A stretch of 63,891 bases of DNA, filler included, from Collodictyon triciliatum (GCA_043381765.1; 5 parts of 5 records of this genome joined end to end with filler, not necessarily neighbours in it), one strand, 5' to 3'. Shown: positions 9,409-51,205, numbered from the whole stretch's first letter. Notes: generated by a model from the sequence alone, not told the origin. Translations and numbers: made by a program.

Positions 9409-9439
<31 letters not shown>

Positions 9440-9684
9440 GACATTTTCGTTTTGTTTCTCGGCGTCAATGCTTATTCCTCGACACTTAAACCTCAGTTTG
9501 TTTCGAAGTATATTCGGGGGAAAAAAGTACCTCGAGCACAACTTAGCGGTTCCATTTTTTTCTATTTTTTTTTAAAAAAATAAATTATGAAAAGGACTGC
9601 CAGCGAACTCATTGGCCGGCGCACAGAGTCTTATGCAAGATTCGTGAATCTGTACCGAGTTCTGTGAACAGCCAAGTCGCATAG
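6350..9684 (+). CDS. Multi-exon protein with C-terminal MYND-type zinc finger
   Basis: Spliced C-terminus TCQRCSLVLLRPLRCGRCKNAHYCSK|DCQRTHWPAHRVLC (about 9233-9310 plus 9595-9684) matches the CxxC..CxxC....YCS..CQ..HW..H...C MYND pattern. Upstream GC-richer exons at about 6900-7083, 7270-7768 and 8011-8277 are bounded by GT/AG. The start codon and first exons are uncertain. Confidence 0.75.
6660..6752. repeat. (TTA)n microsatellite, intronic
   Basis: Directly visible. Confidence 0.95.
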
Positions 9685-12712: not shown

Positions 12713-12812
12713 NNNNNNNNNNNNNNNNNNNNNNNNNNNNNNNNNNNNNNNNNNNNTTAATTAATTAANNNNNNNNNNNNNNNNNNNNNNNNNNNNNNNN
12801 NNNNNNNNNNNN
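12713..12812. other. Artificial scaffold-joining spacer N44-TTAATTAATTAA-N44
   Basis: Exactly 100 bp, stop codons in all six frames, recurs identically four times in the window. Confidence 0.97.
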
Positions 12813-17932: not shown

Positions 17933-20900
17933 TTATGAGGTGAATTTGAGGCGCTTTGTTTCTTTCACCTTGTACCTCGTCTGGCCAAAGAAGTTTGGAG
18001 CTATCGTCTGTAGATAAGAGCATTTACGTATTGGTGTACATGATTAAAGGACAAATATCGGCAAGGAGCAATGAGCTGGCAAATCTGAACACTTTTTTTC
18101 TTTGTTATGATTTCATCGCGGCATCAGCCATAAGCAAAGTTTGATATGGGATGAGTCCGTACCGATGCGAGATCGCGCTTTAGAAACTGTAGCGCAGCGA
18201 GATTCAGCCCTATGACATCCTACGTAATGCATGTAATGCATATAATGTATGCATGTATGTATGTATGTATGTATGTATGTATGTATGTATGTATGTATGT
18301 ATGTATGTATGTATGTATGTATGTATGTATGTATGTATGTATGTATATGATTATAGCATATTTTGCTTTTGTGTGTGGGAATGCCATCGGTAAGCGTCGC
18401 GCGCAGCATTACCTTATAGGCGCGTGATTGGGTGTGCACGTGGCTCCACAACGACGATACTTGAGGGTAGAGTCGGTCTGTGTGTATCACTTGGTTATAG
18501 TGCGACTTTGTCAAAAAAATGGCACACTTGGAGCATAGTTCAATTTGAGTTCCCTAAAAATGTTAGATTTTCATGATACAGTTTGTCAAGGATTTTGAAC
18601 ATCAAACAAGATGCTTTTTTAAATTTAATTTTTATTTATTCATATTTCTTTTTATTTTATTAAAAAAAAAAAAAGGGAAAAAAGCCCGACGTAAAGTTGA
18701 TAGTCAATTTTGTATTTGAGTTCCTGCAACAACTTTTACAGACTATAATATTATGACTCACTTGTTGAATAAATTTGTCGAGGTATGACAGAAGCTTAGC
18801 CATCATGTCAAACGATAGCGTGAGAAGAGCCTCTTCGATTTCGTGCGATGGTACTGCTTTGAGAACACCCAACAGATTCTAGGATGCGTAATCAGCCACG
18901 AATGTGACATAGATTGCGATGAGGTATGCGGATTTTTTGGTGTGCCAATAATTGTATTTATAAATACCTCAGCCCCAGTCTTCCCCATGAGTAAAATATT
19001 TGGAGTTGGTGCTACAGGTTTTGAGACTTGTGTTGGGTGGGCCATGTGGCTAACAAGAGTCTAAAATAAAGACAAAGATTAGAAGGACAAATGAAAATTT
19101 TTATTCAATGCTTTTCGGGCATATTTGTTTGGAAAAAAAAAACGCAAAACAACCTCATTAAATTCTGCTAGTGTTTTTGCCTCTTCTTCTGCCAGTTCAA
19201 TTGCCTCTGATATCCTCTCTCCAGCTTTTACTGTTTCTATCGTCTTCTTTCCAGCTGATGCGCTTTCCGCATCAGATTTCTACAGAAGGTAGTATACAAA
19301 AACGTATCAAATAGCCGGGTCAAAGAATAATTATGATTACAAATCCAGTTGATGAAATATTGTGTAACAAAGTCTCGAAAAAGAAGATATGAAGAAGGAA
19401 GGAATAGATGACAATATAAACAAATATATACCTTTTCGGCTCCTTCAGCAAGATTTTGCTCAAATAGCTTATCAAGCTCTGCATCTCTTTCTTCTTCCAA
19501 AAATAGCTTTCAAGGTAGAATATTTTGAGAAAAAGACAAATACATGAGAATTGAATAAATAAACAATTAAAAGTCACCCAGAATGGCTAGATAGCCTTGA
19601 AATGCATACCTGCTCATCGGTTTTCTTCCAAAATCTCAGAGACCTGTCATGAGAACCTACATGATGGTTGTTATTTTTTCTCAAAAAAATTATTCAAAGC
19701 ATCCGATATTTCAGGTGATTTGAAGGAAATAATGTGAAGATCAACGATTTAAGCCGATATTTACAGAGTGATATACATAAAAGGTCCGCTATAATTTTGG
19801 AAAGTACCAGTAACCACAAAATCGCCTCGTCTGCTCACAGACAAAGCCCAAATTTCAGCGTGATGGCCTTCAAGTGCCATAATTTGCTCAAACTAAAACG
19901 AGTCAAAATGATTTTTTCCGCCATTAAAATGAAAACCAGACATATATTTGCCGGAATGATGCACGCTTGATACAACTTAATTGAAAGATGAATATTATAT
20001 ATAAATAAATATAACTACCTTGTCCATGTCCCAGTACTTGAGTAGCTTGTCCTTTCCAACAGAGAAAAGATAATGGGTCTTTGGTAAAAATTTTACCTGC
20101 ATAACGCTGTCGTTGTGGGCAAATAATGATTTATGACAGTCTCCAAAATCAAGACCCTACATAAGAAGAGGAGAGGCAGATATGACTTTTATTTTCACTT
20201 GACACTTCTCTCCACAACATAATCCATAGTATGGTGCCAGGACCAGGTTGAAATCGTCAAAATAAAAAGCAAATCGAGAGATTAGAAATGACGAAGCAAT
20301 ATTGTAAAGTAGAAAATACCCAGATTTTGATGTTTTTATCAGCTGAGCCAGTGGCAATGAGAGTCGAGTCTGAAGATATATCCAAGGAGAGGACAGGGAG
20401 CTTTTTACAATTTATCATGTAAATAAGTGCTGCACTAATTTCAACTTAAATGTTTTTAATTCGAAAAAAATGGATAAGCTGATCCAATTATGGAAACATT
20501 TTCAATAAATCTGTCATGAGAAACCTTGTGTCCGTATAGAGATAGTGAGAAGCGAAGGGTATCCAAGAAAAATATCTTGACTGTGGTGTCCAATAGAGAA
20601 ACCGCAAAGTATTTTTGGTCAGGACTGTATCTAAATTGTTTTGTAATTTTTTTTAACAATATAACTCGTGGAAAAATAGAGGATGGTCAAAATTAAATGA
20701 ATTTACTCAAAACTATTACCCATTAATTCTACCATTTGTGATATTGTGAGTGATTACATATGCGAACAAATGCTATATGATAATATTTGTACATACTTCA
20801 CACAGAGGATATCGTCAGTCATTTGCAATGAACGCACATAACCAAGGGTTATGTTTTTGCCTCCGGTTTCTCCTTCTTTCAACTGAAAATCCCAAAATTT

Positions 20901-23900
20901 TACTTCTTTGTCTGCTCCACCTTGATGTTGATCGTGTTTGATGAGAATATAGCATACGCATCATATAAAAAGAAATTTCGAGCTCAGAAAAAAGAAAAAA
21001 AAGGGTATACATACAGCTATGCAACACATTCAAAAGACGATAAACACACATACAGACACAGATTTGGGATGTCATGATTTTAAATGACAGATACCGACCA
21101 GTCATGAGACCTTTCCCGGTTGGGTGGATGTCGAGCGACCATACAGCGTTCGAGTGAGCTTCGATTGAATCAATCATGGTCGATGATGCAATTTCGAAAA
21201 GTTCTAAATGTCCAGATTTTGTTCCAATGACAACCTTTTTTTATTTACAAATATCAAATATAAATAAGTGTTTGTAATTTTGGTTATTTGGTTAAAAAAT
21301 TGCTATTTGAGTTGGTGATATCAAAGTAACCATTAAAATAACACATCATTCTCTCATAAAAGAAAGGAATAAAACCGAGGGAAGTGTTTATGGTTGAAAG
21401 AGCGTTGGCAGAAATAAATAAATTACATGTCTGTCTCCAGGCAAGAATGATGCACATAATGGATATCCACACTCCATACTTCGCATGCATTGACGAGTAG
21501 ATATGTTCCAAATTTTCAACATGCCTTTACGATGATGGAGTTAGAGCCTGCCTTAAGAGGTTTCATAAGGGTGTTGTATTGCGTTGGATACTGATGATTA
21601 CCGTTCGAGGCAGACAGAGCCATGCTTCCGTCGCCACTGATAGAAACCACTCTTATATCTTGTCTGTGGCCTGCTGTATCGCTTGATGAGACTGTTTCAG
21701 GGGATAAGTTTGTTAGAAAATCATACCACACATGTTCAAAATTATTCATATAGCAAACAAATAATTTATAGAACGAGCCTACCCTTCGTGGCATCCAACT
21801 CATTTAAAGTGTAAACTTCAACAACATTGTTGAATAGCGAAAGCAGTATTTGTTGCTATTATTTGAAACATGACTTAAGGCGAAGCAGGTTACAAGGATA
21901 TTGGAATATGATGATTGAGCAATAAGCAACAATATTGAGGGCACATTTTGAACATACCTTTCCACCTTTCGGTATCCCTTTAAGAGGCAAAAAGTCAATC
22001 GAGCGCACTTTTCCACCTCCGTGAACAATAATTTTGGATTGGAACTCATCCGTTGTTTGGTATTGGCCAGCATTTTCCACTGCACATATTTTGGTAATTT
22101 TATAAGTTTTTTTGTAACAAAAAGATAAATAAATAACCGAATATCATATTCATTAATGGAACATAAAGGCTGCTCGGTTGAAAGTATACACTGCTCTTCG
22201 GTAACAACTTCCTCCTGATCATCATCCAGTTTGGTCTTGGAGCTTTTTTCTCTTAATCGTTTCACTCTTCGCTTGATTTTCTTTTGGATTTCTTGTGCAT
22301 CAGCGACATAATAAATTTGCACATTCCTGTCTGCTGGCTATTGAGATGGGTAAGGGTTATGAAAAACAGCCACCACTTTTCTACGAATATAAAAGTGAAA
22401 TCAGAGATTTTAATTCGTTCTCTAAAAGTCTCCTTTTATATAAAAGTAAATTTAGCCATTTCAGAACGTAAAAGATTTATCACAATTACTTGGCAAGCAA
22501 GATATTTTCCATCCTCGCTAAATCTCAAGCTAATTACTCTTTCCTTGCCATCCCGAGGGAGGGTCCCAAGAAGTTCTATTTCTTGAATCGCCGGCTTATC
22601 TTCCTGGTTAAGCACAATAGAAAAAACAAAAAGAAAAATATTCTCAGTAATATCATTAAAAGCACAGAAAAGTACTGCTTTAAAAATAAAACCCAAATGA
22701 ATTTTTTTTTTCCTGTTACCTCCACCTTCGCAGATTCAAATGGAGGTATATTCCAAACCCGAAGAATGCTATCAATTGACCCTGATATCATTTTCGTTTC
22801 ATCCTTGTTCACATCGAAACTCCAAACCTCTGAGCGATGTCCCACCAATGTTTGGATGCAATGCTGAGTATCCATATCCCAAAGCTATTTTCATACCAAA
22901 GTGACGACATAGATTGATTTTTGTAGAAAAGTAAAGATAATGAAATGAAAGTTTTTCAAGAAAAATAACCAATTTTAAACGATAAAATAATTTCATTGTA
23001 AACCTTAATGAACGTGTCTTTGGAGGAAGATAAAACTTTTCTTGAATTTTCCAATAAGCGAACATCAGTAATAACATCCTTGTGACCTCGAAGTCTGGAC
23101 ACAGTGAATCAGGAAAAAAAATATAGATTGCATTAATAAATGCCTTCTTATTTCCTCAAGTAAAAAAAGACCAACAGTTGATAGTTCAAACAAAAATATT
23201 TGAAGTGTATGTAAGATAAAAAAATACTTGAACATGCCAGTTTCGGATACGACATCCCAAACAATAACGTCAGTATCTCGCGAGCCGGAGACCAAAAGAC
23301 TTCCAGACGTGTTGAATCTAATACAAGTGACTGCATTTTTATGGCCACTGAGTTTAACCTTGAGCTGAGCCTGATCGAGGCTCCATATGCATATCGATCC
23401 GTCCTGATGCCTTTGCGTGTGGTAGGCAAATTCTCAATTGGGTGATATCAGAAGGATTTCGTGTGATAATACAAGAGAGAGAGGGAAAAAGGATACATAT
23501 ACTACAGCTACTGGAAAATTAACTCAATCCCTGTGCTCAATTAGAGTTATGGATGAAAGCTTTGAATTAAGTATTTCATAAAATTAAGCATGAATACTTA
23601 TGTATTTTAAACTAACCCTGAAGCTATTAGCTTGCCGTCGTGAGAACGGGCAATACTGGTCACTTCTGATTTCCCGGCATTCATTCTCTTGGTCTAGATG
23701 TATTGGCGAATCATTAGGGATCTAAAAATTGCAAGGTAGAACTTTGCAAGTAATATAGATAACTTGTCACAAAGCATAACAAAGAAGGACAAAAAAAAAT
23801 AAAAAAATAAAATAACAACGAAAAAGTAACAAAATGAAATAAAGTAAAACAAAGAGGAGAATCCTAAGTGCACAGTGAAAGTGAGTGATTCTCTTTCATT

Positions 23901-24092
23901 CCCGAAGTATGTGTCACACAAGTTACTTGAAATACTTACTGAAATGTTCCTGCGCAGATCCCAAAGGCATACGCTCTCCAACGAAGGGCAAATCGCCATT
24001 CTTCCATAAATATCAAAGACTGCATTGGAGCCAGAGCTGGCAACGACTCCCAGTGCCCCGTCAGGCTCGAAGCGAAGGTAACTCTTGACCAT
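17933..24092 (-). CDS. WDR3: WD repeat-containing protein 3 / U3 snoRNP-associated Utp12 (Dip2)
   Basis: N-terminus [19 protein letters not shown]. Internal [93 protein letters not shown]-terminal Utp12 domain EEALLTLSF...[13 protein letters not shown]. The predicted last exon ends TAA at 17933. Confidence 0.96.
18253..18345. repeat. (TATG)n microsatellite in WDR3 intron
   Basis: Directly visible. Confidence 0.95.
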
Positions 24093-24544
24093 AGCTCGAC
24101 ACAAGTGGTTGCGGCTAAAAGTCCAGCAGAACTAGCTTTCAGAAAACAATAATACCAAGCCGAGAATAGGCGCCTGGAGAACGAAGCAGGTGTGTTTCTA
24201 GCAAGCAGCAGGAGAAGGTGTTGCGGACAAGAAAACTTTGATCCTTCGCACAGAAACCACGTGCCGGGTATGAGTGCTTCTTGAAGCATTTGTATGGCTC
24301 GTATATCCACACTCCAACATCCTCATCTAGAGGCTGATTCGTGACCAACAGCAGAAGACTGCAGAATCTGGGCTGATTGTTCTATGGCCTGTGGGCTTCG
24401 GTGGCCATATGAATTCCGCAAATAGAAAAAGGGTGGAGTGAGTATGCACCAAGATACGCTTCTTTTTTTTTTTTTTTGTACTATGCCACCCCTGCGACAG
24501 GTTGCCAGTGGGTGAGTTGGGCATTTTTTTTTCTAATAATTCAA

Positions 24545-25517: not shown

Positions 25518-25617
25518 NNNNNNNNNNNNNNNNNNNNNNNNNNNNNNNNNNNNNNNNNNNNTTAATTAATTAANNNNNNNNNNNNNNNNNNNNNNNNNNN
25601 NNNNNNNNNNNNNNNNN
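25518..25617. other. Artificial scaffold-joining spacer
   Basis: N44-TTAATTAATTAA-N44. Confidence 0.97.
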
Positions 25618-25990
25618 AAACAAAAAAACAAAAAAACAAAAAAACAAAAAAACAAAAAAACAAAAAAACAAAAAAACAAAAAAACAAAAAAACAAAAAAA
25701 CAAAAAAACAAAAAACCAAAACAAACAAAAAAAAGAACAGCAAGCGAGTCCATCAAGTAGGCAATCAAAAATGTCGATTGGCTTTGGTTTTTAGGTGGTG
25801 GAAAGACAAGGAGAAATCATTTGAACCAGATGAAGGGTTCCGCGTTATTCTTTCCCAAAGCTATGTTTTCTTACAGTCAAACGCGCGTAGAACATGAGTG
25901 TTTATACACATGTATAGCAAAATAACTCATATTTTCCCTAAATTATTGGATTGTGTTCAAAGAAATCTTCGTTCTATTTTTATTTATGTT

Positions 25991-28900
25991 TTAATCCAAC
26001 AGTGGGTCAGACATTGACATCGTGGAGAATGATTTCATCCTGACAAACTTTTCTTTGATGGGGCCTTTTCTAAAAACTGGGATGATGAAAGCCATAGATA
26101 CGAAATAAAGAAGCCATATGGAGTTCATCCCGATTAGCAGTACTGCAACCCATGACTCCGAGCCAAGCAGAATGGACAACAGAGCGATGAAGAAGGAAAC
26201 AAAAATAACATACAAACTCGATAGTTCCATTTGATTTTCGATTTTCGAGTTGTACGGGCTGTATTTTTTTTGCATCCAAATTGAACCCTATTATTTTTTT
26301 TTTTTACTTAACATTTTTTTAAACCTAGTCCTAAATAATAGTAAATTGGCTGCCATAAAATTTTATTTAAACCCAGATAATATCGTAAAAAGTAGAGAGC
26401 AAACCTGAAGGATGATGACGAGTAGCAAGAAGAAAACAGAGGGTCTAGTGTATGGAATGACGCCAATTATGATGGAAAAGGCGATGCGCCGGGCGATGAT
26501 GACAAACTCCCAGTATCTGAAGCTCTGAGAAAAGGGTAATATATCAAATACTTTTATATCCAATGGAACACATCGATCCAGGCATTCGTGCCTTAATCCA
26601 ATTTAAGGGGCAAAATAAGGAATTTTAAAAACCTCTTTGTACGGCATGTAAAGAAATCCGTAACGAGCCTCATATTCACACCCCGGCCTTTCAATCATAT
26701 ACCTCATTTTGACCCAAACAAAAACAGGTAACCCAACCAAAAAAAATAAAAAAATGGGAACAGAAATTATAAGCAGGTTTTGATATTCATTGGAAGCGGG
26801 ACTGCATCTAATCCAGGGTCTGTAGTTCAGGTACCAATTGTCATCACCGCCATCATAAACAGTGCAGCCAAAAACACCAAAGACTTCCCTTGCTACAGAG
26901 TAATAAGCGAAGAACAACAGATTCAGAGTGATGAAAACCGCCTAAATAATCAATAACGATACAATCAATATAGGCATCACCTAATCAGTTAAATATGAAA
27001 ATAGTATTGGCAGGCTTTCAACGTCATCGAATTATTATTTTCGTTTATTCTATTCCATTATCATTCAAATTAGCATAATATTTGTGACCTTATTGCGTTT
27101 ATGCCCAAGTTCGAAGTAATAAGTAACCGAGCCAATCAGAACGAAAACTATAACTCTTGAAACATTTAATAACATTGAATTAAAATAGCTTTCTATGCCA
27201 AAAACACACGAGATATTAGGAAGTTGAATTGAACCAATAGACGAGGATATTTCAATGAATCTGTTTGTTTCATCTGATTGGATAAGCCCAGAAAGGAAAA
27301 TCGAGAGCGTTTGCATGTGGAACATGGTAATCCGTAGTTTTGCTAAATTAGAGTAAAAGAATGTCAAAGTATTCACACAATTCAAATGAGGATGAATATT
27401 AAAAAAAAATGTCAAAGTATTCACACAATTCAAATGAGGATGAATATTAAAAAAAAAAAACCTGATTTCGATGTTTCTGACACATAGAGATAGAGAATGA
27501 ATAAACATAGGCCAATCGATCCAACAACCAATGTGAGATACATAGTTTGTTTGTCACATTGACCACACGATCTCCCTTGGTTTCCGTACCCAGTCTTACA
27601 TTTTGAGCATGCACGTCCCTCATACCCACTTCCGCATAATTCGGTGATCTGGATTGTCATATTTGTATTCGAAATTTTATTTGGAATTACAGTATTACAG
27701 GATTCTGGTCTTGGGCATGATATGATCACTTTTGCTTCGATAACACTCGGGGATGCGTGGCAATTCTTCAAAGAAACCCCATCGAGACATTCACATTCTT
27801 GAGGACATATAATACACTTATCACCAAACCCAAAATATCCAGGGAGGCATTTACAAAACTCATGATCGTAATATTTTGGATTTAGATTCACCTTCAATTC
27901 GATAATCCCTGCTTTTGATATAATGGAAGGACATAAATATAATTTTGATTCCTCTTCCAAACTAAATAAAGTAGTATAATTCATAAAATCAGGAAGAAAA
28001 TTTGACTCCATTCGATTCATCGAGATGACATTCAGACCCAAATACTCAAGTTTCGAAAAACGGACGTATGATTCTGGAATACTTCCATAAATCAGGTTTC
28101 CAGAGAGTTCAAGAGAGGTCCATTTTACCAAGTTTGTGAGTTCCCCGAGTGTAGTTAAATTGTTGTTTTTTAAGCTTAATGTTTTTATATTAGTCGCATA
28201 ATTAAAAATTCTCCAGTTCAGTTCTCCAGAAAGCTGATTATTATCAAGCAGAAGGTTTTCATAGAAATAATAGTCGTATTGTGAATCAGGCACAATGAAA
28301 CTACCTACGTCCCCAGAGAGCAAATTGTTCCTTGCGTCAATAGTGACTAAATTTGGTATGTTCCATAAGAAATCAGGCAAGCTTCCAGAGAATTGGTTGT
28401 GTGATAAAGTAAGAGATTTTAGTTGCGACAGTTTCTCAAATGCTTTTGGGATAGTTCCATAAAATTTATTCCACGATAAGTCGATGTATTGGATCGAAAC
28501 AGGATTCCAGTCACTTGGAATAGAGCCTGATATTTGATTTTCACTGACATCTAATCTCTTTAGGTTTTTTAGCTTGAATAAAGGAAGTGTCCCGGACAGA
28601 CGATTTCGAAATAGAATCAATTCCCTCAGATGAATGCAGTCATCAAAACTTGGCAAAGACCCTTCAATTTCGTTACCGTATATGGAGAATACCTCCAAGT
28701 TTTGAAGATTTGAGAAATTTGGAATCTTCCCTATAATACTCATTTATTTAGAGAATCATTATTATGAAAAAAAAAAGTAATCATAATTACCACTGAGCTG
28801 ATTGCTATCTAGATAAATCATTTTTACATCTGGTATTTTGTTGAATTTCGGTATTTCTCCTAAGCAAATACTTTCTTTTAGTGGGTGGATGTATTATCGA

Positions 28901-31296
28901 TTAAAAATTAAATACCTAACCTGTAAACCTGTTGTTGTAAAAACGAATCGATTGAACCTTAGGCATGTTACTGAAGTTTGGAATTATACCTATTATAGAT
29001 AAGTTCATCAAAACAGGGAATAGTTTAAAGTGATAACTGATATTATTGGAACCAAACAGATTAAAAAATTGAGAATCGATATATGCAGAGCATGCAAATA
29101 TCTCAAAAAGAATAAATGCAGAAAAGGGTCGGTTTTTGTTGACTTCCCATAGTTGCGAAATAATTTTTTCTAATATCAGACCAACCAAAAAATTCGTTGC
29201 TGGACAGCGAGATCAATTGGGTATTTGGAATAAACATGAAGTCAGATATTGTACCTGTGAATAAAAAGTGTAATGTAGATTTACTACATTTTAAGTAGGA
29301 GCATTCAGATAAAGAATGGTTTTTTGAAGAATAAATTATGAAATTTACCACTCAAATGGTTGCTATGGACAGATAAAATCGTCAACATAGAAACATTTTC
29401 AAGTTTCGGCAGAGTTCCTTTCATTTGCACGAGTTTAGAGTAAAATTCTTTTAAAAAAACTCGTAGCATACAAATGGCGAACATATATACATACCTGTTA
29501 ATCTGTTGCTATATAGAGATATTTCTCTAACATTAGGGAAATAATTGAAATCGGGTATTGTTCCTGCCAGACAAAATTAGTACAGGGCACTTTTATCAAG
29601 TTTTCTAGCAACTTACCAATTATCTGATTTTCATCCAAATCAAAAACTTCAATATTTGCAATAAATTCGAAGTCCGGAATCGTCCCTTTAATGGAGGTAT
29701 TTAGAATCATTTCATCTCATTACAAGAAAATTTTGAGAAATTTAGTTACCGGTTAACTGATTAGTATCAAAATCGATAATCTTTACACATCGGATGTTGT
29801 TGAAATTCGGAACGCTTCCTTTAATAGAAAATTAGTATAAATGATATTTTTTAATCTCGAAACAATTTTACCCGTCAATTGGTTGCTGAAAATATTAATC
29901 TCCCTTAGAGTTGTCATGAAGCGAAAGTTTGGAATGGTTCCTGTGATTTACATTAGTGAGTACGTAACATAATAAATTTTAGATGATACAATAATCGATT
30001 AAAGGATGAAACAATTGAATGTAAAACCGCCAATCTTGCTTTCGTAAATCTCAAGAATTTTGATATTCGGCATATGGAGAAAATCAGGCAGCGTTCCTAA
30101 GATAACATAAATATCTATGATTAATTTTAAAATATATCAGTTAAATGCTTTAAAATATTCGTACCATTTATTTTTTCGCTAGACCCTATTCTTAGACTTT
30201 CAATAAACGAAATTCCAATGAAGTCAGGAACTGTGCCCTCTAAATGGTTTCCACCTAGATTTAAAGACTCAATGTTTGGAATTCCTTGAAAGTTGGGAAT
30301 AGTTCCGGATATTTGGTTCATCTGAAGGTTCAAATTGAGCATTCCAGGGAGATAAAAATCTGGGAGACTGCCATAAATTGAATTATTGCTCAGATTCAAA
30401 TCAGAGAGGAGCATAAATTGTTCCAAAATTACTGATGCAGCTCCAATATCACCAAACAGATTGTTATCTTCCATCGAAATACCAACAACTGGACATGTAT
30501 TATTCTATTTGCACAGATGATTAGATAACGATTGTAATTTTTTTTGAAAATATTCAAACTCACCTTAATATCTTGATCTGTGCAATAATTATCACAAATA
30601 ACCCCACTCCAATTACAGATAGGTATACTTTCATTATTCCATCCATTTTTATCAGTCCAATTATCACCATCAAATATGTCGTAAATACTGACAAGGAGAT
30701 TGAATTGGTATGCTCCTTTTGGATAAAATTTTTCATATTTATTATCTTTGTCGTTAAGTTTGGTTTTGTTAGATATTTTTGGTTCATAAATGTGAGTATT
30801 TTCGGGAGAGTCGAATTCATCAACCAAATATCTCTCATTTTCTGAATTTTTGATGTTATTTGTGTTACAATAGCTGCAGTTTGTTTCACATTTTTGCATC
30901 GATGAAGTAAATCCTTCCTCATAGTTCTTTGATGTTGATATACAGGTATCCTCGTAGTATTCCAACAAAATTTTAAATGCATCTTCAACTTTCATCGATA
31001 ACAGTTCATCTCTTGAGTAGCGACATCTGATTGTGTAATATGAATTTTTTTTTTTTTTGTTAATTTTGAAATTTTTCATTATGTAATTTATCTGACAAGC
31101 GAACCTAGACCAAAACCTCAGCCATCAAGCACAAATTGAAAGGATTATTAGAAATGCTGCAATCTCTTCCTTGAGTTGAATAATATAATTTATATATTTT
31201 GCTATGATTCACCTTTCTAGCGATTGAAAAGAAAGGCAATGGGTAACCAGGAATATTGCAGTTATAAACCCAATCAGAGTTTTCGAACGGCTGCAT
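25991..31296 (-). CDS. Extracellular LRR / Cys-rich / multi-pass membrane receptor-like protein
   Basis: LRR N-cap NWTDKNGWNNESIPICNWSGVICD, more than 20 plant-type LRRs (LxxLxLxxNxxxGxIP), and a Cys-rich stalk (CKCLPGYFGFGDKCIICPQECEC...CGSGYEGRACSKCKTGY...CGQC). Many hydrophobic segments follow, with RYGFLYMPYK/YWEFVIIARR motifs. Stop at 25991. The 5' end upstream of about 31027 is uncertain because the frame does not join cleanly. Confidence 0.88.
27360..27455. repeat. 48-bp tandem duplication inside an intron of the LRR gene
   Basis: AATGTCAAAGTATTCACACAATTCAAATGAGGATGAATATTAAAAAAA occurs twice back to back. Confidence 0.9.
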
Positions 31297-33823
31297 GATT
31301 TATTAAAATATTTGGATAAAATTATGAAATGCAACGAAATGAAAGCAATTTTAAAATACTTTAATGCACAAATATTTCAAATTATTACACCAGGGGAAAA
31401 TTTTTTGTATGTGGTTAGGAATAAATACTACGTATTTGTGTCAAAAAGTTAATAGGGGTACCTTTGACTTATAAAAGAGCAAAACCTAGTAGCCGGTTTA
31501 CCATTTTCATCGCTTTTTCAGTTTATTGTAAGTATACTTTATGTATATGATGGAAAATTTTTGGAGAGGCATTATTCTTTTATATCGTATATTCTACTTA
31601 CAAAGCATTGTAAATATCGGCAGGAATAATGCGGCAATATCCCATTTGTGATAAGTTGAGGATTTTACTTGAGCTTTTAAGTTTGATTAAATATTATATT
31701 CAAAATTACCGTCAGTTACACACTTTATTGAATTGTAGCTTTCAATAGGATATTTACTTTTAAATTGCCTTTACAATTATACTATTTGCCAACTGTAGAG
31801 AAAATCAAGTTGAAGAGTGAAATGATTATATTTAAAGAACTCTTGCTAAATGAAAAAAGGAGACCATCTCACATAATGATGATAGTTTATTTTTGGATTA
31901 GAAAAATAAGATTGCGATTTATTTTCTAATATATATATATTGTAACATAAATTTTAAATACTTTTATAGTAATACTCCACATCATACTTCTAACCATCTG
32001 ACATTCAATTCAATTGATATGATATAAATTGATGTTGTTTTTTTTACAGATATATGGAGATATTATGCTTGGAACACATAACCCTCATATTATTTTATTA
32101 ACATCTTGATAAATATATTATACTTAAAAAATTCAACAGCATCTTCATTGTCTCTATATGCTTATTTGCATGAAGGTTATCACAAAGCGATCTGGTGTAC
32201 TTTAAATACTAAAGTATTAATAATGCCAATATAAAGATTGCTCCATATATATGAATGATTTATTCACAGACAGTAAACGTAATTATGGTTTTTTTTTAAA
32301 AAGAAAGATCAGGACGTGATAGTATAAAAAGAATTTTCAATCGTCCTGTTGTTAGTTATATTAAAAAAAAAATTCAACCATAGAGTATGGTTTAGTTTCA
32401 GAAAAGGATTATAATTGTATGAAAAGTGCATTTAAATAGAAATTTCTCAGTGAGATATGAATACTGTGTGATTATAAGCATAAAATATTTGGCCCGAATG
32501 GATAAACAATTCTAATGATTGGTGATCACATAAACTGCCCTAGATTGTGATCAACCTTGTTTCTTTCGTGTAAGAAACAAGGAAAAAGAACGAGAGAAGT
32601 CATAACTAAGGCGAACAATACGTTTCAATGTGTAAGGATTTCCCTCCTATCGGCAGCATTTTCTTTCAACTAAAGCGTAGTAAGGACAACAGAACCAGTA
32701 AAAAAAAAATAAAAAATAAAAGGGATTGGTGGGATGAAAGATGATCAAGCACACAGATATAGAAAGCAAGACAACATTACCAGGCAAGGAATACACAATA
32801 AAAAAACCTTTTGAAAACACCACGCCTTTTCTGCCACAAATGCAGTTTTTTTTAATTGTTTTTTTCCGGCTTGGCCTGGCGCGCGTTTCTCTATTGTCCC
32901 CCTTGCATGTCTGTCTTGACAGTAATTTGTGTCGCATGATCGGGTTGTTTGGTTTGTTTTTCTGGGCGTTTCGGATTGCCTTGTTCTGGCCGAGGCACTC
33001 GGGAAGTGGTGACGTGCCGCATTTCCTGTCTCCGAATTATACATATGTGGATTATATGTCACAATTATTTTTTTGGATTCCATTTGCGGGTTTGAAGAAA
33101 AGACTCGGATGCGGCCATTGCATATGACGAATTCGAGTTACTCGTTGTAATTGGGATGCTTGTTTTCGCGCGTGCATTAGAAATACGTGTTCCTTACGAG
33201 CGAGTTGCTAAGTCTATATGATTAGGCACAACTATTAATCGGTTGGGATATATGATTGGCGGGCTCTACCTGTACCAAGTTTTTAGGCACCCTTTGCGAA
33301 TGAGCTAATTACACACCAGACACTCAAAGACCTCATCACTAGGTGGATATTGTAAAGTTCTCTCTCTTTCTCTTTCCATCCGAGTCAAAACCTCAGATGT
33401 AGTTTTCAGTAGAGATGATTTCCTTTTAACGACCTTCACGACCATATTCTACGCCATGATATTCGTCATCACTTCTCTTTGTTTCGTCTCAAATAAGAAG
33501 ATATTGACTCTGATTGCAATTCAAACTCCCTCAGAGATTAACATATGCATTAAATAACGATTCTGTGAGCTATACATAGTTTTCTTTAATGGATCGCTTT
33601 TTATAATCTACTCTTTCGACACCAATCGTGCTTTTCTCCTATGATTCTCGGTATCGAACGGCTGCGGTGTTTTTCTCTACATTCTCTGAATAGACTACAA
33701 ACTGAGGGCGGATTATTTCGTTTCCTCATAGTAAGAACAGCTGGGATTTTCTCAAAGACTTTGCTACGTTCCCATAAAACCTTCATTATTTCCGTACAAT
33801 AACCATCAACCTTTGCTACGATA

Positions 33824-34243
33824 AATACATACATACATACATACATACATACATACATACATACATACATACATACATACATACATACATACATACATAC
33901 ATACATACATACATACATACATACATACATACATACATACANNNNNNNNNNNNNNNNNNNNNNNNNNNNNNNNNNNNNNNNNNNNNNNNNNNNNNNNNNN
34001 NNNNNNNNNNNNNNNNNNNNNNNNNNNNNNNNNNNNNNNNNNNNNNNNNNNNNNNNNNNNNNNNNNNNNNNNNNNNNNNNNNNNNNNNNNNNNNNNNNNN
34101 NNNNNNNNNNNNNNNNNNNNNNNNNNNNNNNNNNNNNATACATACATACATACATACATACATACATACATACATACATACATACATACATACATACATA
34201 CATACATACATACATACATACATACATACATACATACATACAT
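33824..34243. repeat. (ACAT)n microsatellite with internal gap
   Basis: Directly visible. Confidence 0.95.
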
Positions 34244-34508
34244 AGAATGGTTTAAGATAGAAAAGTTTCTAACGCAAAGAAATCGGCATGTTTAAATGAC
34301 AGACTGCCACCAAACCATACAAAAAGACCCTTTGCCTGCCTCCTCCAACCCGGCGTCTGTTGTCCTTCCACCCGCGGAAATGATTCTCTCATGTGCAAGA
34401 CTTGTGCATTTCTTGCCCCGTTCTGCTCTTTGCGGGACTTTCTTCCTTGCCAGACTCACAAACCTTGCACCAAGCAGACAAGACGAACGTCGAAACTCGC
34501 CCGTTCGC

Positions 34509-37500
34509 ATGGCACACTCCTCACCCGACCAGAAAATACCGGTTGTTGTTGCTGTCAACGACACCCTTTCGATCTCCGAGTTGTCTGCAAAACACTTCCT
34601 GACCAACTCCCCACGCGGTTTGATATTAATACTTTTTCATTCATATTCTCTGCATTTATTTACTTGAATTCCTTTTTTTTTTCTTCTTGCTACAATTCCT
34701 TGTATTGAGTAACTAACTATTCTCGCTTCATTCACTTCAACCGGGTAGGCGCATATACAACCGCACGCTCTTTTGACCAAACCCGTATTTTCGAGTTGGA
34801 TTTGCATTTGGAAAGGTTAGGTAATGCAAACCCCACTTTCGAAGTTTAGTTGAGTGTGACTGTACTTGAAAAGAGACCGTTTCTTCTCTTATCGCTAATC
34901 TCCACACACGATGAAGATATATACATATCCTATGCGCAATATTAATTTATTGCTTTTTTAAAAGAAATATGTTAACATAAAAAAAGAAAAGAATATATAA
35001 ACATAAACACGAATACACGTATATGTCGATGTAGTTTGATAAGTGAAGAAAATAGTAAATAGCGGGACGTAACATTTTTCCATTTATATTTGTTAGCAAA
35101 TACATTGGTCTTGATGGAGGCCAAAGAACCACTTCCTCTTACAAAACAGCATGTTTCTGAAGTAGTCCTTCCTAAACTCAAAAAGTCGATGCAATTCTTT
35201 ATTGACCAAGCCCCACCCAAGACTGAAATGCGAATCACTGTGGTAGTAACAAATCCTTTGGTAGCAAAAGAGTCTTGGAAAACAGCGCAACTCAAAGTAA
35301 CTGTCACTGCCATTCAATTTTTTTTATTTTGTTAGTTGCTAGGTTTATGGATTAAATTATAAATAATAATATTTCATTTTAATTATGAAACAAGTGTTTT
35401 AAATTAATATTGTTAACAAAAGGCAGCATCATATCATAATTAATTATTTTTTTGGAGCTGACAAAACCATCTCACGCCCATCTATTTTATAGTAGTGTTT
35501 TTTTTTTTGTGTGAAAATTTACATTAAAGACTTTATGACTTTGCTCTAGGATTCTTCAAATGATGACATCAATGTGCTCATTCACATATCGCATTTGCCT
35601 CCACCTCCGAGTTCACCAGTCAAGGTAATCGTGCGCGGGTCTCCGAGAAAAAATGCTGCCGCAAAGGATTCAGCCTGGGTCATGTATGATTGCATCGAAT
35701 TTTGATACTAAATAAAAACGTTGCAACGAAGCAGTATTAAGATGATGGAAATCGGGAAGTGACAGGCATATATGTAATCTGACTGGGCCATCCTAAAATA
35801 ACTTGTAGATATCTTTCTGGATGATATAGATCATAATTCTTGTAAATAATTGTATGTAGAGACCGTCAGTCCTTAGAGGCGCAGATGCCTGCTGATGTCA
35901 ACGAAACTGTACTCTGCGAAGATGGAAACATTTACGAAGGACTTACAAGCAACTTCTTTGCTCTGTGCAAAGGGAAACTGTACACCGCACCGGAAGGGAC
36001 AGTTCTCGCTGGCACAGTGCGCGCATTAGCGATTGATATATGCAACAAGTAAAACCATATACATTTCTCAGAGAAAATATGAACGCATATAGCCGATGAA
36101 TTTATATTTGAAATTTGTGGAACACTTTATTTTTCACTATAAAATGATGGTTCTTTCCTCTCGTTTTATTGAAAACGAAAAAATAACATTCTCTTGAGTA
36201 TCGACTAAAACGTGGGGATATCCCTAAAAGCATTCTGATTTAATTCTCAATCATGATAAAATCTACATCATCAAGAGAAGGGATTGAAGTTGTTTTTGAA
36301 CCTCCAAGCATCTCTCACATTGCTGATTGGACTGGGTGTTACATCTCAAGTATTAATTTTACTCTCGTTTTCTGTTTGTTTGTTTGTTTGTTTGTTTGTT
36401 TGTTTGTTTGTTTGTTTGTTTGTTTGTTTGTTTGTTTGTTTGTTTGTTTGTTTGTTTGTTTGTTTGTTTGTTTGTTTGTTTGTTTGTTTGTTTGTTTGTT
36501 TGTTTGTTTGTTTGTTTGTTTGTTTGTTTGTTTGTTTGTTTGTTTGTTTGTATCATAATTACTTATGTAATTATTATATTCATATTAATAATTTTCTGCT
36601 CATTCTCCTTCTCCTTCAAAATTATTACTTACACATACAGACAAAAATAGTAAAAAAAATTATATAATAAAGAAAAATAATGACATCAGTCAAATCAATC
36701 TAAACAAAGCAAAGCCTCATCTGTAACACATTGCCCAACACAGGCACTTCACGGCTAATGACTCCAGTCAACGTACTCAGGTAAACCGCCAATTACTCAA
36801 CCATAAAAGCATATGCACATACCCGCTCATACATATGTTCAGTATCATCACTTCAATTCACTTCAAATACATGAAGGTCTATTAAGACGATATGATTTTA
36901 AAAATATCTGAAAAAAAAGAGAAAATGAATGAAAGAAAAAATGAATGAAAGAAAAAAGAAAAAAGAAAGAAAAAGAAAGAAAAAGAAAGAAAAAGAAAAA
37001 AGAAAAAAGAAAAAAGAAAAAAGAAAAAAAGAAAAAAAGAAAAAGAAAAAAGAAAAAAAGAAAAAGAAAAAAATGTATCGATATTGACAACAAACTCTCA
37101 ATCATCCACTAATCACTCCGCCTGGCTCCCAATCCCCAGCTTGCCAGAGGCTGAAGGTTCGCCCGTTCATTGCTTCGAATCCACTGGGCCAAACGCAGAC
37201 CCAACCGTGGCGCTCATATCGCGTCGTGTCCACGAGTTATTGAAAGGTTTCCATTCGATGACAAGCCAACACAAACCACAAATCACAAATCACAAATCAC
37301 AAATCACAAATCACAAATCACAAATCACAAATCACAAATCACAAATCACAAATCACAAATCACAAATCACAAATCACAAATCACAAATCACATAGTCCAG
37401 AGACAATGACTGAGCCATTTACAGAATCCTTTCTTTCTTTCTTTTTTTGTTTTGGTCTTCTCTTCCTTGCTGACATGTGCACTGTTATTCGATTAGAAAA

Positions 37501-37519
37501 CAGCCCGCCTGTGTTTTAG
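34509..37519 (+). CDS. PLP-dependent class IV aminotransferase-like protein (BCAT/D-amino-acid aminotransferase fold)
   Basis: Spliced translation: PRGAYTTARSFDQTRIFELDLHLERL, PRKNAAAKDSAWV, NETVLCEDGNIYEGLTSNFFALCKGKLYTAPEGTVLAGTVR, GCYISSTSRLMTPV. The predicted last exon ENSPPVF* ends at 37519. Confidence 0.9.
36374..36551. repeat. (GTTT)n microsatellite, intronic
   Basis: Directly visible. The same motif recurs at about 51206-51282 and 56976-57074. Confidence 0.95.
37278..37391. repeat. (ACAAATC)n heptamer tandem repeat, intronic
   Basis: About 16 perfect copies. A short run of the same unit occurs near 52682-52706. Confidence 0.95.
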
Positions 37520-37815
37520 AAACTAAGGGGGATGGAAACGCGACAAGCAAATCACAGACGGCTCAACTGGGGAGGATTAAAGACACAGATATATACAAAC
37601 ACACTTTCTTGTTTGTCTGCCGTCTTTTGAGCGTAAATTAGTTAATCAATCGCAGTGGTTTATGAGCCAAAAAAAATAGTGTCGTGAAAAAGAAGTGGTG
37701 TTATTGTTTGTGCATCTTTGTGTGTTCTGGTAAGGAGAAGCCACGCCGGATAATACGATGCCTTTTCTTTTTTTTTCTTTTTTTGTGGGTGTGTGTGGGT
37801 GTGTGGGAGGACATA

Positions 37816-38032
37816 CTACTCCTGCTTGGGCAGCTCAAAGAGGCTGGGAGTCTTTGGCGGGGTGTTCCCAAAGAGCTTCTGGACATTGGAGCGGATAAAC
37901 ATGGAGCAGAGGACGTAGAGGAAGGTCATGGAGCAGTCTGTGTAGTCGAAGCCTGGCAAGTTGCGGTGGGAAATGCGGGTGAAGAAGGCGATGGGCGTGA
38001 ACGGCAGTTTGGCAACAACAACGCCGTCGAAA
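37816..38032 (-). CDS. TMCO1: TMCO1 (ER Oxa1-superfamily/GEL complex subunit), last exon only
   Basis: FDGVVVAKLPFTPIAFFTRISHRNLPGFDYTDCSMTFLYVLCSMFIRSNVQKLFG matches the conserved TMCO1 C-terminus. AG acceptor at 38033-38034. The 5' exons are lost at the scaffold end. Confidence 0.93.
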
Positions 38033-38207
38033 CTGATTTTATGTGCGTGACTTGGATTAGCCGAGTCGGTGAGAGATGGCGGGGTTATATGGCATTGCGT
38101 GCGCTTATATATGTTGGATGGATAGATGGATGGTTGCATGTGTGGGAGGTTGTTAGATGGGACTGATTTAAGGGAAAATATATCAGGTGAAAAGGGAGAG
38201 AAAAGAA

Positions 38208-38275
<68 letters not shown>

Positions 38276-38315
38276 GAGAAAGAGAGAAAGAGAGAAAGAG
38301 AGAAAGAAAAAAAAG

Positions 38316-38415
38316 NNNNNNNNNNNNNNNNNNNNNNNNNNNNNNNNNNNNNNNNNNNNTTAATTAATTAANNNNNNNNNNNNNNNNNNNNNNNNNNNNN
38401 NNNNNNNNNNNNNNN
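38316..38415. other. Artificial scaffold-joining spacer
   Basis: N44-TTAATTAATTAA-N44. Confidence 0.97.
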
Positions 38416-39417: not shown

Positions 39418-42400
39418 ATGTTGCAAACCCGGATTATGAGAGAAAACGATGCAAACAAAGGCGCAGTTGCCACTGAATCCGAGTGCATCATCGAAGACAC
39501 AGCCCACGCAAAGCGCTACTTCAAAGGACGAAAACTTGGGAAGGTATGATGTCTCCGCGATGTGTTCAACATGCAGTACCGTATTGTGTGCTGGTTTTTT
39601 TTTATTTTCCACTGCCCGCAGCTGTTTGGCCGTCGGCCTGGGAAATGAATCTCATCGGTGATTTCTCATAGGGTGGCTTTGCTACCTGCTATGAGATGCG
39701 TGAGGAAGCGACGGGGAAGATCTACGCAGGAAAGTTTGTTCAAAAGTCGACACTCGTGAAGCCGAAGGCCAAGCAGAAGGTCTGTTACCTACCACGATAC
39801 TTGAATACACTTATTGCAATTGTTTTGCTCCGTGTTTGTTTTGGTTGCGACTTGCTTTCTCTTTTTTTATTTACTCCTTACCCCCGTTGTTCGAAGGCGG
39901 TTTCGTAGAATTACGTTCTATCACATCGACACGCCTTGTCAATACGATTGTTGCACCAATATGCATGCCTACAATATTCTATTGGCTGAAAATCTTGTTC
40001 ACTTATTTAGTTGACAAACGAAATCAAAATCCACCGCTCCGTCAACCATCAGAACATCGTCCGTTTCCATCAGTGCTTTGAGGACCGCGAATATGTGTAC
40101 ATCATACTCGAGCTCTGCGATAACAAGGTTCATCATGGAATCATATATTACCATCCTTAACCCATGCTGTTTGCAAGCAACATTTCATCCTAGAATCAGC
40201 TTTTGTTGCTTTATTTATGAATGATGTTACGTTGTCTTGTCATTCGTGGTTTATCATCTCATCCTTCTTGCGTTGTAATACCACTTGGACGAAGGAAATC
40301 TGATTGGGGTATTTTATACGTCGTCGCAGAGTTTCATGGAACTACTTCACAAGCGCAAGCGTCTAACAGAGCCTGAAACGCAGTACTACATGCAACAACT
40401 GGTCCATGCTGTAGGCTATCTCCACAAGAGCAACATCATCCACCGTGATTTGAAGCTCGGGAACTTGTTCATCAACGACAAGATGGAAATGAAAATGGGA
40501 GACTTTGGACTTGCGACGACTCTCGCGTACCCTGGAGAGAGAAAGCAGTAAGGAAGCCGCATTTTTTGAAGGACTTGCAAACTCTAGTTGTATCAGTTGT
40601 GACTCTCATAAAGTCTCTTTCTATTATCTACTGTATCTCCTCGTATCCATGCATGTTTTTATAAGGTTCCTTATTTGCAGCACCATTTGCGGTACCCCTA
40701 ATTACATTGCGCCAGAGATGATTGATGGCAAAGGAGAGCACGGGGCTGAGGTCGATGTATGGTCTATGGGTGTTATAATGTTCACATTGTTGTGTGGGAA
40801 GCCCCCGTTTGAGACGACTGATGTCAAGACAACGTACAAACGAATCCGTGGGTTGACATACGCCTTTCCCGAGAACGTGTATATATCCGACCATGCCAAG
40901 GGACTCATTCGCTCTATGCTTTCTCTGACACCATGTAAGCGACCCACCCATCCTAAACTATTCCTCCTCATGACGTAAAACCCAAAAAAAATAATAATGA
41001 ATCAAGTGTATGAACATACACTGTTTCATCGTTGACTAGTGTGTGAATTCTGATAAAACATGGATTTGTCTTTTGCATCAGGTTCACGTCCGTCATTGAA
41101 AGACATCGCCGCACACGCTTTCTTCAAGACTGGGACGATTCCCCGCAGCATCCCTATCTCCGCCCTCACTACAGCACCCACATTCAACAGTGCAACCACT
41201 CTGGGTCCCGCACTCAAAACTTCCATCCCAACAGTGTTACCTCATACATGGACGCACGTCCCGTTTCATGGGTTCAATGCGGACAATGAGACGGACAAGG
41301 AAAACGCTAGAGGGAATCTTGGGATAGGAACTGCCAGAGGCGTGATTGAGAGCCATGGACTATACGGGCATGGCCGCACCCCGACAGACGAAGTGGAGTG
41401 CCTCAAGATGGCAGACATGGATATCCGTGAGTCAGTTCGTGGACGAGGAGAAGCGGCTTGCAACCCCGCCGCCCCTGTAATGGCTCATGTCCACCATGCA
41501 GGTCAAGTCCCCCAACCTAATACAATAGTGTCTGCCCCGCGAGCCTTTCTGCAGAGTTCACAGCCGAACAACCCCGATGAAGATGAACGGAGCTGCCGCC
41601 AGTCATCGCTCTTGCAACCGCAGCAAGCAGGTCTTCGCAGCTCAGGCTCATATGTTGCCCAAACCCCTCAAACGATTGGGCCCATCCCTCCTTGCAACCA
41701 AGGCACCTCTATCGCTCTTGCAACAGCCCAAGCAACCTCTTCAAACTCCGGTCAGTCTTCCAACTCATGCAACGGAAGTAAAGGCTCGAGCTCAGCCACG
41801 GGGTCAGAGAATAACTTGAAGGAAGCGAATCTGCGAGCTGAGTCCAGGACCAGGTCCAAGACCTGCAGTGGTGAGTAACGCATATTATTACTCTATCTTA
41901 TCTTGACATATACTTGAATCTGAAACATCGCTAAAATGAAGAGGAATACATTTCTTTGCTCGAGGATTTATTCATTCTATTGGAACATTAAGGATACCTT
42001 TGTTTACATCTTGCTTACGTATTACACCGCCGCCGTAGTTCTCGGGGCCATCAATACGGTTCAGTTGGGCAACGGTGCTGCCCATATCGCCAACCAAGCG
42101 CCAGCAACTACGCGTTTGGTTGGTTCCAACGGCAAGGATGTTTTTGACGGCGCTGTGGATGCCAATGCTGATGGTGAGCTGGTGGAAGACGGACAGGAAT
42201 TGGATGATGACGACAGATGCAACTTGACATACATGCACCAGAAGCTTGCTGCGGGCATCGAACAGATAGGGTCGCCTGAGAGGGCAAAGTTGTTCAGGCT
42301 CCGAGAGAGGGAGGAACGGGGTTTGTACCTATCAGAGTCTTCCAACGAAGGTGTTCAACACAGACACAGTCACAGACACACTAACATAAGAAAGAAAAAG

Positions 42401-51105: not shown

Positions 51106-51205
51106 NNNNNNNNNNNNNNNNNNNNNNNNNNNNNNNNNNNNNNNNNNNNTTAATTAATTAANNNNNNNNNNNNNNNNNNNNNNNNNNNNNNNNNNNNNNN
51201 NNNNN
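51106..51205. other. Artificial scaffold-joining spacer
   Basis: N44-TTAATTAATTAA-N44. Confidence 0.97.

Follow-up and report, generated by a model that had tools for sequence, protein, structure and literature searches.

Results

Nine equal exons, each encoding one leucine-rich repeat

We analysed a stretch of 63,891 nucleotides of Collodictyon triciliatum DNA (GCA_043381765.1), referred to below as the window, with emphasis on one minus-strand gene encoding a leucine-rich repeat (LRR) protein with a multi-pass membrane domain. The window consists of five separate pieces of about 12.7 kb each (12712, 12705, 12698, 12690 and 12686 bases), all of which terminate in simple repeats. They are joined by spacers at 12713-12812, 25518-25617, 38316-38415 and 51106-51205, each made of N44, a 12-letter stop in all frames and N44. 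The LRR gene sits on the third piece (25618-38315); since the pieces are joined by spacers, genes past a spacer are not its neighbours. At the center of the gene lies the following array, for which the E values are those of an nhmmer search with an exon profile.

30028-30096, minus strand: 69-bp LRR exon 1 of 9 (E 4.3e-10)
29872-29940, minus strand: 69-bp LRR exon 2 of 9 (E 7.8e-11)
29750-29818, minus strand: 69-bp LRR exon 3 of 9 (E 1.2e-10)
29617-29685, minus strand: 69-bp LRR exon 4 of 9 (E 5.3e-10)
29495-29563, minus strand: 69-bp LRR exon 5 of 9 (E 2e-10)
29349-29417, minus strand: 69-bp LRR exon 6 of 9 (E 6.1e-9)
29186-29254, minus strand: 69-bp LRR exon 7 of 9 (E 1.6e-9)
28921-28989, minus strand: 69-bp LRR exon 8 of 9 (E 6.6e-11; last 14 letters in a transcript contig of run X1, see below)
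28791-28859, minus strand: 69-bp LRR exon 9 of 9 (E 1.5e-10; joined to exon 12 in an X1 contig)

A script check of each exon confirmed that all nine are exactly 69 bp long, with AG before and GT after. Their length is divisible by three and each encodes one 23-residue LRR. The exons end in G and start with GA, GG or GT, a Gly codon being split 1+2 at every junction, so that both sides are in phase 1. Together the exons translate into an uninterrupted stretch of 207 residues of the form G-x-[IL]-P-x-F-...-L-x-L-x-x-N-x-L-x, and each exon is closed by stop codons in the flanking introns. The introns within the array are 53-196 nt long and AT-rich (GC 0.17-0.38), the GC content being 0.36 in exons versus 0.26 in introns. 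Exon 2, the large exon that precedes the array, has its 3' boundary, in phase 1, in the Gly codon of the following repeat. Since its end and the start of exon 12, which follows the array, share phase and repeat position, ten consecutive introns lie at one repeat site. All ten are of one phase and the exon lengths are multiples of three; consequently, any subset of the nine exons can be joined in frame. A succession of nine exons of equal length is far beyond chance.

The gene surrounding the array

Reading frames and GT..AG sites were traced both ways from the array on the minus strand. The resulting splice model has 15 introns of 53-196 nt, each with GT..AG ends, and the modelled protein is collinear with its relatives from Diphylleia rotans.

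25991-31079, minus strand: whole modelled coding region, 16 exons, 3726-nt coding sequence, 1241 residues (splice model made from the sequence)
30564-31079, minus strand: exon 1, N-terminal region with the LRR N-terminal cap (Cys..W.GV.C motif; Pfam LRRNT_2, E 1.9e-5, 25.3 bits against a cut-off of 20.7)
30165-30504, minus strand: exon 2, 340 bp, about five fused LRRs (Pfam LRR_1, 1.4e-7; LRR_4, 3.9e-6)
27462-28730, minus strand: exon 12, 1269 bp, about ten LRRs, Cys-rich stalk and first membrane helix (Pfam LRR_8, 2.7e-20)
27089-27342, minus strand: exon 13, membrane helices (gene model; collinear with relatives)
26633-26941, minus strand: exon 14, a membrane helix, a Cys-bearing outer loop (FGCT...W.LN..PW..C) and the next helix (alignment)
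26405-26524, minus strand: exon 15, membrane helices (gene model)
25991-26287, minus strand: exon 16, last membrane helices, tail and stop codon (gene model; covered by X1 and X2 contigs)

Counted by eye, the protein has about 24 LRRs: about five in exon 2, nine in the array and about ten in exon 12, the last being less regular (22-29 residues). C-terminal to the LRRs lies a Cys-rich region with 17 Cys columns invariant in an alignment of 12 family members, followed by eight or nine hydrophobic helices spread over about 340 residues. Within exon 14, C26, D30, W43 and C46 are invariant in the family alignment. A Pfam scan of the gene's large exons found no kinase and no ROC/COR domain, and the four C-terminal exons, which encode the membrane part, gave nothing above threshold, only chance-level rows.

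An earlier note on this DNA had claimed nine 69-bp, phase 1-1 exons with a conserved scaffold, flanked by LRRs in large exons and attached to a non-kinase polytopic membrane domain. All nine exons were confirmed where it placed them, and the scaffold and the beta-strand strings that it gave (KILEIYE through KMIYLDS) are all present in the translated array. The flanking LRRs are where it put them, in the 340-bp and 1269-bp exons, and its statement that units could be skipped, duplicated or swapped without a frame break holds as frame arithmetic. The description of the membrane part agrees with the kinase-free Pfam scan, with the multiple helices of the gene model and with the presence of the Pfam family PF06011 in relatives (see below).

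The 5' end of the model is tentative. The modelled start ATG at 31079 yields no signal peptide; relatives have one. A hydrophobic, signal-like stretch upstream ends at a GT donor at 31212 and, by eye, an AG acceptor at 31105 would join it in frame, although the only ATG nearby (31296-31294, minus strand) sits in another frame. This discrepancy (31105-31296) reflects either a missing exon or a one-base error of the draft.

Transcripts from the locus

Contigs from three sequencing runs of one study (X1, X2 and X3), which are only guessed to be RNA, were aligned to 25800-31500. Contigs from X1 and X2 cover the 3' half of the LRR gene with 90-100% likeness; run X3 gave no match on this interval. 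One X1 contig splices out 26288-26404, which is intron 15. Another splices out 28731-28790, intron 11, thereby joining the exon at 28791-28859 to exon 12, and it extends past the former into 14 letters identical to the end of the exon at 28921-28989. The letters that follow these 14 are presumably a cDNA amplification adaptor. The last two junctions of the array thus have some transcript backing. Between the window and the X1 and X2 contigs there are 14 coding differences, seven synonymous and seven non-synonymous. The latter are mostly I/V/T/M changes in helices, and all 14 lie outside the array.

The array exons are old and bear no marks of shuffling

We examined the array exons and their introns for signs of recent exchange. 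Pairwise DNA identity among the nine exons is 39-67% (mean 52%), and neighbours are no closer to one another than other pairs (0.518 vs 0.519). In local alignments of all pairs of the 15 introns the score never exceeded 17, that is, the introns are unrelated. The divergence of the exons, together with the unrelated introns, indicates that the array exons are old.

Profiles of the nine exons, one for DNA and one for protein, were run on both strands of all 63.9 kb. They recovered only the nine array exons and the flanking LRRs of the same gene, all on the minus strand. No intronic, reverse-strand or inactivated LRR exon was found by these profiles anywhere in the window, the best match on the plus strand or on another piece having an E value of 1.6. 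Profile searches and tblastn found no orphan LRR exon on the other four pieces, and tblastn with the whole protein gave no match in the window outside 25994-31079. The 196-nt intron 9, long for this gene, was considered as the site of a pseudo-exon; this was rejected, as neither profile matches there.

Relatives of the protein

Database searches were run with single exons or with relatives as queries. With exon 12 as the query, the best full-length matches were proteins from EukProt transcripts (38-42% identity, 96-100% cover) with the same order of parts. They are 1270-1507 residues long, and the window protein aligns with them end to end. The fetched paralogues are 35-54% identical, and the C-terminal 521 residues of the window protein show 35-43% identity, and no higher, to the 40 best-scoring of 181 matching fetched proteins. 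The closest relative found is a fragment (P0312) that has 62% identity to the 290 C-terminal residues encoded by exon 12; P0312/P0313 lie on a contig of 1087 nt, and the fragment, a paralogue or orthologue, ends where exon 12 ends. Among close clusters with a species look-up, all 23 of the 23 named close ones were D. rotans (8/8, 7/10 and 8/10 rows); the remaining rows were one Gefionella protein, two oomycete proteins and two fragments. A quick maximum-likelihood tree placed the window protein inside a D. rotans radiation of 25 rows (SH-aLRT 100; clade rows P0174 and P0180 are without a species look-up), where it is sister (91) to a group of four.

In four full-length relatives Pfam recognized only LRR families, LRRNT_2, FG-GAP and, weakly, DUF7630 (PF24633). 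Against a cut-off of 27 bits, DUF7630 scored 16.6-16.8 in the relatives, 30.9 in P0172 and 26.9 in P0218, and it is unlisted for exon 12 at E≤0.1. The best named matches of the LRR part are plant LRR receptor-like kinases.

Relatives also provide information on introns in the membrane part. Isoforms of D. rotans carry insertions of 21 and 24 residues exactly at the position of window intron 15. Open reading frame fragments of the relatives P0191, P0194 (on a 944-nt contig), P0196, P0200 and P0206 cover only the equivalent of exon 14; after the conserved Y-K-[ED] they continue for a few residues, starting with V, and end just past the site of window intron 14. A V at this place is what is expected if an intron starting with GT lies at the intron 14 position. 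Taken together, the insertions at intron 15 and the fragment ends at intron 14 make the intron positions of the membrane part look conserved. Two scans of metagenomes for genomic loci of relatives, one with the exon-12 family alignment and one with a second alignment of fewer rows, returned 51 and 139 pattern matches respectively, of which none was confirmed. We consider the gene to be, probably, an ordinary, intact and expressed member of a protist family of large surface proteins.

The membrane domain

The membrane domain was studied through P0148, a natural C-terminal fragment (320 residues) of a relative, which was searched against a library of 1.84 billion proteins. It matched 1312 representatives at E≤1e-3, 105 at 1e-10 and 28 at 1e-30, and the match was always C-terminal, in proteins of 100 to 5923 residues. 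LRRs were recognized in 25 of the 29 long representatives that were scanned, FG-GAP in addition in 4 and NIDO in 1; two others, both non-LRR, carry the Pfam TRP family PF06011 over the matched stretch. P0220 reaches 31.3 bits against the PF06011 cut-off of 28.5. The same family was matched by 18 of 38 short aligned members at E≤0.01 (best E 3.9e-12), and in the nearest Atlas clusters it occurs in 12-25% of members. The closest relatives of the window protein gave no PF06011 match either.

The AF2 model of P0148 (pLDDT 87.8, pTM 0.82) is an all-helical membrane bundle; it has eight long helices, and the Cys-bearing loop contains a small beta hairpin. A sequence profile search of the PDB with the membrane domain gave a best E of 0.033, to designed helical proteins. 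Foldseek with the model gave 0 PDB matches at E≤0.001, and VIA-align over 48,161 chains reached a best Z of 8.4, all generic helical bundles. In these searches, the model being that of the relative P0148, no known fold could be named for the domain. From the family matches, the C-terminal domain of eight or nine membrane helices appears to be distantly related to TRP-like PF06011.

Comparison with known LRR exon systems

In-phase LRR exons are also present in vertebrate NLR and ribonuclease-inhibitor genes. In Ectocarpus, the so-called type I LRR exons, found in ROCO, kinase and other LRR genes, have a length of 72 nt and begin at the G of GxxP (PMC3341825); nucleotides 3-71 of such an exon code for 23 residues, with a 2+1 codon split (Teng et al. 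2024, PMC11378527). The array described here likewise has one LRR per exon, an exon start at the Gly of GxxP, a codon split that leaves two bases at the exon start and one at the end, and short flanking introns. A likeness to brown-algal genes with one LRR per exon had been claimed before; it proves closer than claimed, because the Gly start and the codon split are the same. Unlike the type I exons of Ectocarpus (72 nt, 24 residues), the exons of this array have 69 nt and encode 23 residues and, unlike the Ectocarpus ROCO and LRR-kinase genes, the present gene encodes neither ROC-COR nor a kinase. For Ectocarpus ROCO genes, shuffling was concluded from LRR exons that lie in introns or on the reverse strand or are inactivated (Zambounis et al. 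2012, PMC3341825); the same paper reports that the LRR-kinase genes have the same layout of one LRR per exon and that no shuffling marks were found in them. The window contains no such marks, and in this respect the locus resembles the Ectocarpus LRR-kinase loci and not the ROCO genes.

The second comparison is with Tetrahymena, whose LRR genes number in the thousands and have arrays of exons that measure exactly 90 bp, the older genes having short introns and no nucleotide-level repeats and the younger ones recombining (Xiong et al. 2019, PMC6564038). Shared with our locus are the long tandem array of equal LRR exons and the single intron phase. Tetrahymena paralogues vary in exon number, and those of the present family, which differ by multiples of 23 residues at protein level, may do likewise; like the older Tetrahymena genes, the array also has short introns and no nucleotide-level repeat. 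The two differ in that a Tetrahymena exon measures 90 bp, its introns are in phase 2 and its LRR is of another type, as opposed to 69 bp and phase 1 here, and in that the thousands of Tetrahymena genes include recent expansions linked to retrotransposons, as opposed to the single locus in view here. The array is an analogue of the 90-bp system and does not belong to it.

Gonadotropin receptors of vertebrates have in-phase LRR exons as well, which have been read as the product of duplication from a prototype exon (as cited in PMC11378527). As in the present gene, the LRR ectodomain of a multi-pass receptor is built from in-phase exons of roughly one repeat each. Unlike it, these receptors have the seven-helix domain of G-protein-coupled receptors, exons of unequal length and LRRs of the animal type, and structure searches with the P0148 model found no homology of the membrane part to them. 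Fungal and protist PF06011 proteins (such as Aspergillus TrpR, Cryptococcus and yeast Flc1) are comparable in the C-terminal multi-pass domain, in so far as part of the wider family matches PF06011. The fungal proteins are without an LRR ectodomain and are described as TRP-like, calcium-related channels. With plant LRR receptor proteins and kinases the window protein shares the LRRNT_2 cap and the plant-specific LxxLxLxxNxLxGxIPxx repeat. It differs from them in a repeat of 23 and not 24 residues and in having neither a kinase nor a single-pass anchor, the place of which is taken by the Cys-rich stalk and the multi-pass domain. Our literature search found no paper on 69-bp LRR exons or on D. 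rotans LRR genes.

Discussion

Origin and present state of the array

We favour the view that the array is old and fixed at this locus, left by exon duplication, with no mark of ongoing shuffling, and hold this to be probable. Long ago, a 69-bp, phase 1-1 exon would have been duplicated in tandem together with its own intron. The nine central, regular repeats would have kept the layout of one repeat per exon, and the less regular repeats on either side would have merged into two large exons. Symmetric units would allow the gain or loss of whole repeats in the course of evolution without a frame break, and it is presumably in this way that paralogues came to differ. In the present gene all nine exons are probably included constitutively; the length of the protein with full inclusion is consistent with the lengths of its family members. 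The LRR solenoid would bind a ligand outside the cell and pass a signal to the membrane domain, which might, by analogy with fungal PF06011 proteins, be a cation channel or a channel regulator. The analysis thus qualifies the earlier note's proposal of a modular system for diversifying recognition. Its point that exposed positions differ from exon to exon is true, but it fails as evidence of diversification, since such positions vary between the repeats of every LRR protein. The proposal is weakened by the age of the exons, by the lack of shuffling marks and orphan exons in the window and by the result with D. rotans isoforms given below; paralogues that differ by multiples of 23 residues and a D. 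rotans pair in which a single unit is swapped speak for it.

Several findings weigh against an array that is both old and fixed. The search for shuffling marks covered no more than some 64 kb, from an assembly that is fragmented. The X1 and X2 contigs leave 28862-30956 uncovered, and eight of the ten array junctions are predicted from the sequence. Within 90% clusters of D. rotans proteins, 0 of 48 isoform pairs (23 + 8 + 17) have an internal insertion or deletion of a multiple of 23 residues, a count that speaks for a fixed array but is weakened by the many pairs that overlap only in their C-terminal halves. When the window protein was aligned with seven paralogues, 12 of the 33 gaps of at least 8 residues in the LRR region were exact multiples of 23, and alignments among paralogues contain gaps of 23, 46, 69, 92 and 115 residues. 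Aligners favour unit-sized gaps in periodic sequence and these gaps are therefore only suggestive; as such, they suggest that whole units may have turned over during the evolution of the family. More direct is the comparison of P0160 and P0306, two D. rotans proteins of one Trinity gene (DN3242_c0_g1, isoforms i2 and i6), in which exactly one LRR unit is replaced (22 vs 23 residues). The swapped unit, at residues 707-731, is bounded by conserved Gly positions, and elsewhere there are 2 mismatches in 1735 aligned residues, both of them point changes in the next repeats downstream. Such a pattern would be expected of mutually exclusive exons or of a recent exon swap between alleles or paralogues. 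P0129, in turn, is without 12 residues of P0002, the gap beginning exactly at the Gly of GxIP; both events would be accounted for if introns of D. rotans lay at this point of the repeat too. As to the proposed function, the membrane exons of the window protein itself are below every Pfam threshold, and the link to PF06011 runs through relatives.

A Trinity chimera was considered as the cause of the swap in P0306. The alternative unit has no match of at least 60% in any other of about 330 fetched proteins; a chimera with a paralogue outside this set is conceivable.

Alternative splicing and germline shuffling

The best surviving alternative to an array that is old and constitutively spliced is that whole 69-nt exons are skipped or chosen during splicing, so that one gene would give several LRR surfaces, as reported for the Ectocarpus ROCO genes. 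The single intron phase and exon lengths that are multiples of three would allow this for any subset, and Ectocarpus splice variants with differing sets of LRR exons are reported by Teng et al. 2024 (PMC11378527). P0160 and P0306 differ by one whole unit, placed where exon boundaries are expected, and none of the other fetched proteins contains the alternative unit; the two proteins, however, also differ by two point changes and so may be alleles or paralogues. Whole-unit skipping is absent from all 48 D. rotans isoform pairs, no intron in the window holds a spare LRR exon, and the full-inclusion length fits the family. We regard alternative splicing as unlikely, at about one chance in several.

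A wider proposal would take the proteins that combine LRRs, a Cys-rich region and a TRP-like domain as a large repertoire of recognition receptors of the Diphylleia-like lineage, in which an LRR sensor is wired to a channel-like domain and the binding surface is varied by choosing, swapping, gaining or losing 69-nt exons. There are dozens of divergent paralogues, some with FG-GAP or NIDO modules, and if this proposal were true, the single-unit exchange in D. rotans would be the first glimpse of such variation. We rate it slightly below alternative splicing, as a speculative possibility.

Somewhat more doubtful still is that exons are being shuffled in the germline throughout the family, with unequal crossing-over and conversion among paralogues as the mechanism, and that this locus is an old, quiet member; the model here would be the Ectocarpus ROCO genes or the young LRR genes of Tetrahymena. 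Neither the locus nor the other four pieces contain a nucleotide-level repeat, a relic or a reversed exon, and fetched paralogues that are only 35-54% identical point to old duplications. These observations stand against a large and divergent family (28 representatives at E≤1e-30; 23 close clusters from D. rotans), paralogues that differ by 23 to 115 residues in steps of 23, the replacement of a single unit in P0306 and a 62%-identical paralogue fragment on the 1087-nt contig, all of which family-wide shuffling would accommodate.

Finally, we judge it very improbable that introns entered each repeat independently at a favoured G|G site in the Gly codon, or that the flanks lost theirs, the equal exons being a by-product: G|G is common to all junctions, the flanking repeats are without introns at the same positions and the introns share no similarity, but ten insertions at one codon position and none elsewhere in the repeats are unparsimonious, the same boundary and codon split are found in Ectocarpus type I exons, and dissimilar introns are expected after long divergence.

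If the array is, as we favour, an old product of exon duplication, its interest lies in what it adds to the known cases. For brown algae and ciliates, equal, in-phase arrays of LRR exons have been proposed to drive receptor diversity, and the layout of one repeat per exon is by itself no proof of active shuffling. The present locus extends this layout to a new lineage and to a receptor of new architecture. A third, deep-branching lineage, the closest relatives of which by sequence are D. rotans transcripts, now shows this exon boundary and codon split; the unit is therefore either very old or easily re-invented. The combination of plant-type LRRs with a TRP-like multi-pass domain is an uncharacterised architecture, on which our literature search found no paper. 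In a predatory protist, it would be a candidate for coupling the recognition of a ligand directly to ion flux.

Other features of the window

The X1 and X2 contigs also point to a probable spliced transcript on the strand opposite to the LRR gene.

26536-28563, plus strand: span of four GTAA..AG joints (X1 and X2 contigs, boundaries checked)

The four joints (26536-26653, 27327-27487, 27868-27992 and 28409-28563), all canonical introns of the plus strand with GTAA..AG ends, are each found in one contig per run, and the joint at 27325/27487 is found in both X1 and X2. Two of them fall within coding exon 12, where, if read as sense events, they would shift its frame. One contig combines a sense joint with an antisense joint, which is possible with an unstranded assembly. 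The joints look like those of a spliced antisense transcript across the 3' half of the LRR gene. Intron 12 (27343-27461) contains a direct tandem duplication of about 48 nt, and one X1 contig omits 47 letters in this intron (27354 to 27402); the copy number of the duplication may thus differ between the window and run X1.

Other pieces of the window carry a WDR3-like WD40 gene (20815-24131, minus strand), a Polo-like kinase with kinase domain and POLO box (40493-43166, plus strand), an ankyrin-repeat open reading frame (11133-11555, minus strand) and a MYND finger open reading frame (9131-9583, plus strand), none of which contains LRRs. The remainder of the LRR gene's own piece has many microsatellites and low-complexity runs (33825-34250, 36340-36560, 36900-37100 and 37270-37400), made of 4-mer, 8-mer and purine-rich repeats, one of them broken by a gap of 196 N. 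On the same piece, at about 35.0-36.3 kb on the plus strand, lies a split gene that, by eye, resembles an aminotransferase of class IV.

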